In this document: in pieces, positions 3,496 through 60,169 of the stretch
How positions within the stretch are numbered: the first letter of the stretch is position 1
Layout: every line of letters begins with the position of its first letter
Assembly: GCA_021791195.1 (NCBI GenBank)
Contig: JAJYXB010000008.1
Location: 10,921 to 74,920 of the forward strand
Direction of reading: 5' to 3'
DNA length: 64,000 nucleotides
Origin: Actinomycetes bacterium
Lineage (GTDB): Bacteria > Actinomycetota > Thermoleophilia > BMS3ABIN01
Translations under genes and position numbers: made by a program
Notes under the pieces: generated by a model
What the model was told of the DNA's origin: nothing
The model's input: only the letters and a program-made list of their open reading frames with translations
Databases searched by the model: none

Positions 3496-3674
3496 CTCAA
3501 GTCCTCCGTCAGGGACGCCGCCGGCGCCGGGTAAAGTTGATCATGCGTTGCCGGGAACAGGGTTTTAACGCTTCAAAAGATAACACATCCAGCCAGAACA
3601 GTTAATGCGCTGTTAATGTGCCTGATGCGCTCGCCCGGGTTTGCCCTTTATGGCCACGGCTTCGCCCTGCTTTA

Positions 3675-3702
3675 GCAATAAGCGTTTGCCCATGTTTATT
3701 GC
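3675..3702. promoter_or_regulatory. Inverted repeat GCAATAA-N14-TTATTGC upstream of hsp20-lon (possible operator)
   Basis: Perfect 7-bp inverted repeat about 180-210 bp upstream of the hsp20 start. It does not match the CIRCE consensus. Confidence 0.25.
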
Positions 3703-4016
3703 CTGAAAGGGACAATCCTAATCATGGTTCAGTAAGCAGGCTCCCTGACCGTCAAGTCATGTATTTTGCCCGTCGAAACCCGGCAGTTACCGGTATTCCG
3801 TTCGCGCCATCGATGACTCCGGCGGCGGCATCGCCAATGCTGAAGTGGCCATCCGGCTGGATGTGACGTAGCGTTGCAAAGCTGCGTATCACCGGATCCT
3901 CCGGCCGGTCAATCGCGCGGAGGGACGCCCGCATGAGCCTGACTTCCAGGGAGAAGAAGGCGGCTTGCGGCAGGCCGGGAGCGCCGGCGATGAACCTGTC
4001 CGGCGCGGAGGGTTTC

Positions 4017-6991: not shown

Positions 6992-8005
<1,014 letters not shown>

Positions 8006-8006
8006 A

Positions 8007-8102
8007 GGGGACGTTCCTTTCCTAAAGTTCCTAATTCATTTGCGAGGCCGCCCTTTCCAGGCCAGTTCCCTGAATTAGGAACTTTAGGAAAGGAACGTCC
8101 CC
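8007..8102. repeat. MITE/REP-like element with 32-bp perfect terminal inverted repeat (copy A)
   Basis: GGGGACGTTCCTTTCCTAAAGTTCCTAATTCA ... 32-nt loop ... TGAATTAGGAACTTTAGGAAAGGAACGTCCCC. It fills the ilvH-ilvC spacer. A related copy is at 60084-60169. Confidence 0.65.
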
Positions 8103-8107
8103 GCTTG

Positions 8108-8584
8108 CTATTTTTCGCCGCGCTCGATGGCGATGCGGCCGGTCCGCACGATCTCGGCCACGTTCGGCTTCAGCAGCAGCTCCAGCGCCTCGATCTTTTC
8201 CGCCGTGCCGGTGATCTCGATCGTCATCGTCTTGCGGCTGACGTCCAGGATCTTCGCCCGGAAAATCTCGGCGATCTGCATCACCTCACCGCGGCTTCTG
8301 GCGTCGGATTTCACCTTGATCAGCGCCAGCTCCCGCGCCACGGTGTTGTCCGGATCGAGGTCGGTGATCTTGATGACGTTGATCAGTTTGTGCAGCTGCT
8401 TGGTCACCTGCTCGATCGGATGCTCGGCGGCGTTGACGGTGATCGTCATCCGCGAGACGTCGGGGTTCTCGGTGACGCCGACGGCGAGGCTGTCGATGTT
8501 GAACCCGCGGCGTGAGAACAGGCCCGCGATCCGGGCCAGGACGCCGGGCTTGTTTTCCACCATGACTGACAGCGTGTGTTTCAA
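8108..8584 (-). CDS. ilvH: Acetolactate synthase small (regulatory) subunit
   Basis: (M)[29 protein letters not shown] is an ACT-domain IlvH N-terminus. Probable TTG start at 8584 overlapping the ilvB stop (TTGA). The alternative ATG is at 8563. Confidence 0.85.
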   Translation of the reverse strand: MKHTLSVMVENKPGVLARIAGLFSRRGFNIDSLAVGVTENPDVSRMTITVNAAEHPIEQVTKQLHKLINVIKITDLDPDNTVARELALIKVKSDARSRGEVMQIAEIFRAKILDVSRKTMTIEITGTAEKIEALELLLKPNVAEIVRTGRIAIERGEK

Positions 8585-15452: not shown

Positions 15453-15495
15453 GGGGGGACCTTTGATAGAAGTTAAGAAAGTGAAGGAACGTCCC
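15453..15495. repeat. Degenerate or short copy of the GGGGACGTTCC...GGAACGTCCC element family
   Basis: GGGGGGACCTTTG...GAAAGTGAAGGAACGTCCC resembles both ends of the 8007-8102 element. Confidence 0.3.
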
Positions 15496-15724
15496 TGTTT
15501 CTGGTTTTGCCCGCCCCGTTTTGCTAATGTAGGTTTCAGGGCAGGATTAAGCATGAACCTGTCGCCCTGATGGACCAGTAAGTTGATTTCTTCCCCGGCT
15601 GGCCGGATCGCAGCCCGGAGTCCCCAGAGACATCAACCCCGTGAAGCATTTGCAACCGGTGTTTTTCCTTCTGAAAAAAACCACAGCCGCCATACGGCGG
15701 GGCGCCGGCCGGTTATCCGGCAGG

Positions 15725-20118: not shown

Positions 20119-20142
20119 CCCTGCCTCTCGAAACCGGGGAAA

Positions 20143-20279
20143 CCCGGGACACCTTATGATTTTTTTTCGCCATCATCCCGGGGGCACTGGTCAAAAAAAT
20201 CATAAGGTGTCCCCGGTTTATTTAATCCATCATCCCGGGATGCCGGTCAAAAAAATCATAAGGTGTCCCCGGTTTATTT
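20143..20279. repeat. Triplicated 24-nt motif (one inverted, two direct) forming a long hairpin
   Basis: CCCGGGACACCTTATGATTTTTTT at 20143-20167 is the reverse complement of AAAAAAATCATAAGGTGTCCCCGG, which occurs at 20193-20216 and 20249-20272. The two direct copies sit in 52-53-bp tandem units (20171-20223 and 20228-20279). Confidence 0.75.
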
Positions 20280-59989: not shown

Positions 59990-60083
59990 CAGCGCCTCTT
60001 CGCGCAGACAGCCGCCCTCATCAGTCAGGGTGTTGCTACCGATTTTTACGACGCAGGTCTTTGACAGTGCAACCGCTCCTTTT

Positions 60084-60169
60084 GGGGACGTTCCTTTCCT
60101 AACGATCCTACTTTTGGAAAAGTCAGGCCTTATTTATGTGTCATCAGGATTGTTAGGAAAGCGTCCCCG
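60084..60169. repeat. MITE/REP-like element copy B (imperfect TIR GGGGACGTTCCTTTCCTAA...TTAGGAAAGCGTCCCC)
   Basis: Same termini as the 8007-8102 element. Its right TIR contains the murA stop codon and the last ~4 codons. Its left end lies just upstream of the proB 5' region. Confidence 0.55.

Follow-up and report, generated by a model that had tools for sequence, protein, structure and literature searches.

REPIN-like inverted-repeat doublets at gene boundaries of an uncultured Thermoleophilia bacterium and their probable TIRYT-type transposase

What kind of element takes up nearly all of the short spacer between ilvH and ilvC in a bacterium of the class Thermoleophilia (Actinomycetota), and is it, or was it, mobile? 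The locus lies in the window, that is, the whole 64-kb stretch of DNA analysed here. A first-pass annotation described a 96-bp element in this spacer (copy A), a second copy between murA and proB (copy B) and a degenerate third one, and read them as MITE- or REP-type mobile repeats that carry a ribosome-binding site and fold into hairpins in the mRNA. The analysis reported below leads to a related reading: copies A and B are very probably non-autonomous REP doublets (REPIN-like, or "TIR dimers"), the arms of which flank a TIRYT-type Y1 transposase gene elsewhere in the genome.

Arms and copies in the window

The 96-bp element with perfect 32-bp inverted arms is present in the ilvH-ilvC spacer as first described (Table 1). 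Its two 32-nt arms, which are 100% complementary, surround a 32-nt core and form the longest local inverted repeat of the window; their G+C content is 44%, against 63% for the window. The element was said to fill the entire spacer, and it does occupy 96 of the 102 nt between two genes that both lie on the minus strand, leaving six nucleotides outside. The gap to the ilvC ATG is 1 nt instead of the 2 nt initially given, and the arm on this side, in the mRNA sense, reads ...UUAGGAAAGGAACGUCCCC-U-AUG. It contains AAGGA, 9 nt 5' of the ATG, which is the only Shine-Dalgarno (SD)-like motif of ilvC. Carriage of a ribosome-binding site is accordingly plausible for ilvC, and wrong for proB in this genome (see below). 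In gene sense, the RNA of copy A is predicted to fold into a single unbroken stem of -69 kcal/mol (z = -11.7 relative to dinucleotide shuffles) and that of copy B into a structure of -38.7 kcal/mol (z = -4.4). A scan of the whole window at Rfam gathering thresholds returned zero matches. A promoter and terminator scan of positions 7800-8300 gave neither a consensus nor a terminator-like tail, and the reading of copy A as an intrinsic terminator was dropped for that reason.

Table 1. Coordinates of the repeat units and adjoining gene signals in the window
Feature	Position	Strand	Remark
REPIN-like doublet copy A, 96 nt	8007..8102	-	arm profile E = 1.3e-9 per arm
Copy A arm, ilvC side	8007..8038	+	GGGGACGTTC + CTTTCCTAA + AGTTCCTAA + TTCA
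Copy A arm, ilvH side	8071..8102	-	begins 5 nt past ilvH stop
ilvC start codon	8003..8005	-	ATG 8005-8003, 1 nt from copy A end
ilvH (acetolactate synthase small subunit) stop codon	8108..8110	-	
Decayed single arm	~15459..15496	-	AGGGACGTTCCTT-C-ACTTTCTTAA; downstream of response-regulator gene
REPIN-like doublet copy B, 85 nt, decaying	60084..60168	-	murA-proB spacer; arms 60084-60113 and 60143-60168
murA stop codon	60153..60155	-	TAA 60155-60153, inside copy B arm
proB signals outside copy B	60065..60081	-	AAGGAG 60081-60076; sole candidate start CTG 60067-60065

The doublet at murA-proB was likewise recovered, with its end at 60168, position 60169 belonging to the flank. Its two arms are non-identical: the proB-side arm shares the 19-mer GGGGACGTTCCTTTCCTAA with copy A, and the murA-side arm carries a 3-nt deletion and more mismatches. 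That this arm provides the murA stop codon and last codons was confirmed, the last four codons (GTLS) being encoded by it. The window's MurA ends in ...RDRKHRAGTLS*, whereas the protein of all relatives ends in ...SDRAPSAAPI/F(N)*. The AAGGAG of proB, for its part, falls outside copy B and does not stem from it. As regards the proB start, no ATG, GTG or TTG is found upstream of the conserved VVKIGS, and the CTG sits 8 nt past the AAGGAG. This CTG is conserved in an 82% identical species (locus L030) and is used by one public annotation (a 368-aa call, L013); other gene callers shorten the protein to at most 342 aa. The degenerate copy placed at 15453-15495 is a relic of the family (its gapped alignment score is 31, and none of 2983 random 70-nt windows scored above 22), but a single decayed arm and not a doublet; its folding is non-significant.

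All arms share a simple build, namely a GGGGACG start and, after it, two 9-mers in tandem; they lack both a GTAG and an internal stem. After the GGGGACGTTC head, the 9-mers are CTTTCCTAA and AGTTCCTAA in the window (8017-8034), and CTTTCCTAA twice in L028 (2281-2298). The 19-mer GGGGACGTTCCTTTCCTAA occurs three times in the window versus 0.01 expected. When a further 21 kb from the same species was searched with the arm profile, the hits were an 83-nt doublet that takes up the whole Zn-ribbon-surE spacer, one singlet arm, and three arms around a transposase gene. The ~96 kb sampled from this species hold three doublets and five single arms, and the copy number looks low.

Beyond the species, the exact 19-mer was found at one locus only (L001) in 185,579 species genomes, and had no match in JGI metagenomes. 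It is too strict a probe, because the arms flanking the transposase gene differ from it at position 10. The degenerate 18-mer GGGACGTTCYTTTCCTAA, scanned against metagenome contigs, gave 25 loci, about eight of which have a full arm (L031, L032, L034, L038, L041, L044, L051 and L052); the others share the 18-mer only and were not retained, being taken for hits by chance or in coding sequence. The same 18-mer had no match in viral contigs. The wider search for the family that the first-pass annotation called for has therefore yielded extra copies, such as the Zn-ribbon-surE doublet and the L001 doublet in another species. The doublets comprise A, B, the surE-upstream copy, L001, L028, L030, L044 (85 nt) and L051, and the singlet arms are those of L032, L034, L052 and L061. 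The units are dispersed extragenically, and many are inverted doublets capable of forming hairpins. Arms match almost perfectly within well-preserved doublets, yet differ between doublets; they are perfect over 30-32 nt in copy A and in the L030 and L028 copies. REPINs likewise keep the arms of a doublet matched (PMC3116915). By eye, neither a target-site duplication nor a common target motif was seen in the flanks of the eight doublets.

The window also holds a second, unrelated palindromic repeat at 20131-20275. Its arm AAACCCGGGACACCTTATGATTTTTTT (20140-20166) faces two complement copies (20193-20219 and 20249-20275), since a unit of about 56 nt is tandemly duplicated. Possible readings are a further repeat family and a bidirectional terminator.

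A Y1 transposase gene flanked by the arms

At two of the metagenomic loci (L031 and L041), the arms GGGGACGTTCTTTTCCTAACGGTCCT are inverted around an ORF of 313-315 aa and form units of ~1.05 kb; the stop codon of the ORF lies within the downstream arm. Two Thermoleophilia MAGs (L056 and L057) encode homologues that are 74-78% identical and have the same arms. Their neighbours, pyruvate:ferredoxin oxidoreductase beta (POR-beta) and aspartate kinase, are also those of L031 and L041, which suggests vertical inheritance at a fixed locus.

With regard to the species of the window, an intact 309-aa homologue is encoded at L064 (6686-7615, GCA_028065365.1). Two tandem arms, AGGGACGTTGCTTTCCTAAAGTT(T/C)C, lie upstream of the gene, and one inverted arm, GGGGACGTTGCTTTCCTAAAGTTCCTGG, lies downstream and contains the stop codon. 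These arms match the ilvC-side arm of copy A at 25 of 26 nt (GTTGC versus GTTCC) and show more differences from copy B. The gene has the same context at every place shown from the species' assemblies and runs. The transposase contig and the window were assigned to one organism by MAG binning, co-occurrence in the same samples and arm identity, in place of a closed genome. In a sister MAG (GCA_021787775.1, ~95% ANI, L058), a 305-aa homologue is flanked by GGGGACGTT[CG]TTTAACTAACGATCCTAATT, which is the arm subtype of copy B, and a transposase paralogue with 57% identity is present at another locus. The two paralogues pair with two arm subtypes, AAAGTTCCT and AACGATCCT. As judged from sequence, the linkage between the arms and a transposase gene is shown in five genome lineages.

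Several features of these loci deserve mention. A conserved promoter-like TTTACA-N16-TATACT (L064 6652-6688; L058 61-97) ends 6 nt before the transposase ATG, with no SD; this placement suggests a leaderless mRNA and transcription from inside the unit. On the left flank (L061 9798-9869, equivalent to L064 6531-6604), a tandem duplication has taken in the arm and 9 nt of flanking sequence (GCAACGCTT-AGGGACGTTGC...), and GCAACG and CGTTGC could pair there into a small hairpin of 6 bp with the GGGA head between them. In L061 and L064, a 169-aa ORF lies upstream, and its stop codon is a TAG that overlaps the first arm. The sister-MAG transposase contig starts inside an arm fragment, CGATCCTAAT (L058 1-20), which suggests that the repeats cause assembly breaks.

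The encoded protein was analysed at the levels of sequence and predicted structure. The L031/L041 ORF matches Pfam Y1_Tnp (IS200-like) above the cutoff (E = 2.4e-12), and its best NCBIfam match is REP_Tyr_transpos, the REP-associated tyrosine transposase, with 59.6 bits, below the cutoff of 80. The HUH motif (H60-F-H62) and the class-2 Y---NP signature (Y119, N123, P124), as defined by Quentin et al. (PMC6006769), are invariant in an alignment of 20 sequences. A search of the PDB by sequence returned nothing for the catalytic domain. The best match of an AlphaFold model (mean pLDDT 79.7) is 4ER8 (E = 9e-7, TM 0.71 on target), a structure of the E. coli RAYT in complex with a REP hairpin; the TnpAs of ISDra2, IS608 and IS200 (IS200/IS605) come next. 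A match to DnaA domain IV (E = 0.0026) covers the C-terminal ~80 residues; Pfam Bac_DnaA_C and HTH_23 score below their cutoffs on this tail, and many homologues have precomputed Bac_DnaA_C (PF08299) hits. From its motifs, which are intact, and its modelled RAYT-like fold, the protein is predicted to be a Y1 HUH transposase of the TnpA-REP class. No DDE transposase partner for the arms was found among the loci, the Y1 HUH gene being the sole gene between the ends.

Occupancy of the sites within and between species

An identical ilvC protein is encoded on 19 contigs from MAGs and metagenomes, labelled Thermoleophilia bacterium at NCBI, and the GCA_028065365.1 contigs are 100% identical to the window. 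Copies A and B occupy the same positions in every conspecific sequence (96-100% nucleotide identity), and no presence/absence polymorphism of either was found among the conspecific assemblies. The variation of copy A amounts to a single loop substitution, in two strains, the arms being invariant, and around copy B a stretch of 386 nt shows no variation at all. Elsewhere in the window, a length difference of ~200 nt among conspecifics (L002 versus L004, L007 and L008) was noticed around positions 3500-4000, in the intergenic region between the ORF downstream of serA and hsp20, and is a possible strain-variable insertion.

The order ilvD-ilvB-ilvH-ilvC is kept in species with ilvC proteins 88%, 87% and 85% identical to that of the window. 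Their ilvH-ilvC spacers (89, 111 and 181 nt) are without the element and unrelated in sequence, and each has its own AAGGAG-type SD. Two such spacers hold unrelated long hairpins, one rich in G-U pairs (L022 270-380) and one made of GCCGGCGCCGGACATTTTCC and GGAAAACATCCGGCGCCGGC (L024 9820-9960); the ilvH-ilvC spacer seems to be a repeated collector of palindromic inserts. One of these species (L001, GCA_021790075.1) has an 82-nt copy, its arms identical over 26-30 nt, at a non-orthologous locus: the site is a divergent intergenic region, where the ATG of a minus-strand ORF is 4 nt away. The family is thus common to both species at non-orthologous sites and is missing from the orthologous one.

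At the murA-proB site, more variants are seen. In the L028/L029 lineage (~95% identical flanks), the end of murA is intact and is followed, 5 nt downstream, by a 138-nt doublet with other breakpoints. Its 30-nt arms are perfect, of variant sequence (CTTTCCTAA twice), and it runs straight into the proB CDS, the AAGGAG and first codons being replaced. In the 82% identical species of L030, an 83-nt doublet with perfect 31-nt arms begins 1 nt after the murA stop, and its core matches that of copy B in the opposite orientation only. Going by these comparisons, the murA-proB site appears to have been long occupied, by an occupant that was flipped, resized and partly deleted, and the murA tail of the window is a by-product of this rearrangement.

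The proposed comparison of strains and relatives has thus given a divided answer: conspecifics are uniform, while related species are without copy A and close lineages are altered at murA-proB. The first-pass annotation held that a conserved regulatory hairpin would be at hand if only its own copies existed, were free of polymorphism among strains and had no target-site features. Copies were found elsewhere, the ilvH-ilvC spacer of related species lacks the element and the murA-proB site is altered. On the evidence of these alignments, the units are shown to have dispersed to non-orthologous sites and to be absent from orthologous sites in relatives.

Origin, possible effects and relation to known systems

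The initial description as a MITE- or REP-type mobile repeat is borne out in the REP sense, the arms flanking a Y1 (RAYT/TIRYT) gene in this species and four other genomes. A MITE of the DDE type does not fit, given that target-site duplications are absent. By its features, the system would be classed as REPIN/RAYT of the TIRtron/TIRYT kind (TnpA-REP subclass 2.1, RAYT group 1).

The origin of the copies as classical MITEs, i.e. deletion derivatives of a DDE insertion sequence moved by cut-and-paste through their terminal inverted repeats, would account for the long inverted ends, variable core, small size and intergenic position. It appears very improbable, as a duplication is missing in eight of eight doublets, the only gene between the ends in five lineages codes for a Y1 HUH and not a DDE transposase, and single and tandem arms exist, as with REPs. 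Harder still to credit is an immobile, locus-specific and conserved RNA hairpin of the ilv operon, such as an attenuator, terminator or processing site. The extreme RNA stability of copy A, its fixation in all conspecific strains with invariant arms, and the fact that it takes the whole spacer and includes the SD-like motif speak for such a hairpin. The same arms are nonetheless present at murA-proB, at surE, at the transposase gene and at an unrelated locus of another species, the orthologous ilvH-ilvC spacers of relatives are unrelated in sequence, and neither an Rfam match nor a terminator-like tail was found. As an origin, this reading is largely refuted; a secondary, co-opted regulatory role is possible and belongs to the preferred reading. 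Readings as CRISPR repeats, tRNA-related sequences or operator sites were dropped, the units being inverted instead of direct and flanking a transposase.

One may also ask whether the family is only decaying, with a domesticated or inactive transposase, and whether the copies are immobile relics kept since their loss would harm the ilvC SD and the murA stop. Zero insertion polymorphism among conspecific strains, the degeneration of copy B and of the 15.4-kb arm, and the divergence of the transposase-flanking arms (one position from copy A, more from copy B) all agree with this, as does the behaviour of RAYTs, which are regarded as single-copy and vertically inherited, with REPIN duplication at ~1e-8 per generation (PMC5581495; bioRxiv 10.1101/2021.07.10.451892). 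Even so, we consider it improbable: perfect arms of 30-32 nt (A, L030, L028) are unexpected in old unmaintained DNA, the transposase ORF and motifs are intact, and the murA-proB copy already has a different structure in lineages at ~95% ANI.

Under the preferred REPIN-like reading, the transposase would mobilise the doublets in trans via single-stranded hairpin intermediates, by the IS200/IS605-RAYT mechanism and without target duplication. Transposition would be very rare, and copies, once fixed in the species, would decay or be rearranged in place. Inserted into the very short spacers that a compact genome offers, they would have become part of polycistronic mRNAs. Copy A would then give ilvC its only SD-like motif and yet lock it in the 3' strand of the 32-bp stem. 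The stem follows the ilvH stop codon at a distance of 5 nt, and ribosomes that terminate at this codon could melt the stem base and so couple translation of ilvC to that of ilvH; alternatively, the stem might be opened to ilvC by RNase III-type processing. The duplex of copy A is a plausible RNase III substrate and 3'-exonuclease barrier. Copy B, for its part, would have rewritten the 3' end of murA. We infer these effects (SD sequestration, coupling and mRNA stability) from the anatomy of the element. Liang, Rudd and Deutscher reportedly found, in 2015, that E. coli REPs less than about 15 nt from a stop codon lower expression of the upstream gene via ribosome stalling, and stalling of this type could also apply to ilvH and murA.

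A bolder proposal, which we put forward tentatively and regard as rather unlikely as a whole, is that of an active, TIRYT-driven REPIN-like population in a deep-branching Gram-positive actinobacterial lineage, with a transposase tail that reads the 9-mers and with copies co-opted at gene boundaries. DnaA domain IV binds 9-mers, and the tail resembles this domain, which makes the 9-mers of the arm a possible recognition code. The arm would consist of a GGGGACG cleavage tag followed by the 9-mers CTTTCCTAA and AGTTCCTAA, read on double-stranded DNA by the DnaA-domain-IV-like tail. The co-opted boundary modules would be the stop codons of murA and of the transposase, the ilvC SD and, in the sister lineage, the proB SD and CTG. 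If true, this would be the first concrete recognition model for TIRYTs, a class so far without shown REPIN-like populations.

Among repeats of other kinds, the Correia elements of Neisseria, ERIC and other MITEs are ~100-150 bp long, have long inverted ends and lie at gene boundaries. They are transcribed together with flanking genes, form hairpins sensitive to RNase III and are able to supply expression signals. They are thought to be DDE-derived, with target duplications (TA for Correia), and are not known to have an associated Y1 transposase. The IS200/IS605 elements and PATEs share with the present system the HUH/Y1 fold and the absence of target-site duplication, but IS200/IS605 ends are asymmetric subterminal hairpins with no long inverted repeats, and these elements are multicopy and autonomous.

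The REPIN-RAYT systems of Pseudomonas and Enterobacteria (groups 2 and 3) are closer. Both they and the present family consist of inverted units of ~25-30 nt that form extragenic hairpins of ~80-100 nt (PMC3116915, PMC3337134), and in both a Y1 transposase gene is bounded by these units. The gene is vertically inherited at a single locus in the REPIN-RAYT systems, and conserved neighbours suggest vertical inheritance here as well. The two arms of a doublet remain complementary, turnover is slow and fixed copies decay (PMC5581495, bioRxiv 10.1101/2021.07.10.451892). Classical REPs, however, are imperfect palindromes of 20-40 nt with a GTAG tag, present in hundreds per genome, whereas the arm described here has no GTAG and is not self-palindromic. 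The transposase moreover has an extra HTH domain, and the apparent copy number is modest (~96 kb sampled). Work on REPIN-RAYT systems, as replicators that are long-lived and vertically inherited, has dealt almost entirely with Gammaproteobacteria. The present locus is a clean example from outside the Proteobacteria, with matched arm-transposase pairs across several related genomes, two arm subtypes tracking paralogues and orthologous sites in different states. It also illustrates how repeats reshape gene ends, with a new MurA C-terminus, an ilvC SD within a 32-bp stem and, in the sister lineage, a replaced proB leader. In practical terms, such repeats break MAG assemblies and confuse the calling of starts and stops.

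The nearest known type is that of the TIRtrons, whose RAYT-like genes (TIRYTs) are bounded by long TIRs that start with GGGG[AT][CG] and in some cases reach into the gene's 3' end; these TIRs sometimes form moderately abundant families of single or dimeric dispersed repeats (Di Nocera et al. 2013, PMC3733652). Quentin et al. 2018 equate TIRtrons with TnpA-REP subclass 2.1, with DnaA_C/HTH tails, and with RAYT group 1 (PMC6006769), a grouping of Bertels et al. 2017 (PMC5581495). The present system resembles them in its RAYT-like Y1 gene of ~300 codons with a C-terminal Bac_DnaA_C/HTH domain, in its long inverted flanks that start with GGGGAC, the 3' one overlapping the gene end, and in repeats scattered in moderate numbers, whether single, dimeric or clustered. 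The TIRtron head consensus GGGGWSAS is matched by GGGGACGT at six of eight positions. The TIRYT/subclass 2.1 branch is rarely treated in the literature searched, which portrays its connection with dispersed repeats as weak. Among the Actinobacteridae they sampled, Quentin et al. found only genes of the IS200 type (subclass 1.1), and they saw no REP-like repeats beside genes of subclass 2.1 (PMC6006769). What sets the present case apart from TIRtrons is the host, an uncultured member of the Thermoleophilia (Actinomycetota), and the dimers, which are near-perfect hairpins of 26-32 bp within essential operons. It is, in short, a known type of element in an unusual lineage.
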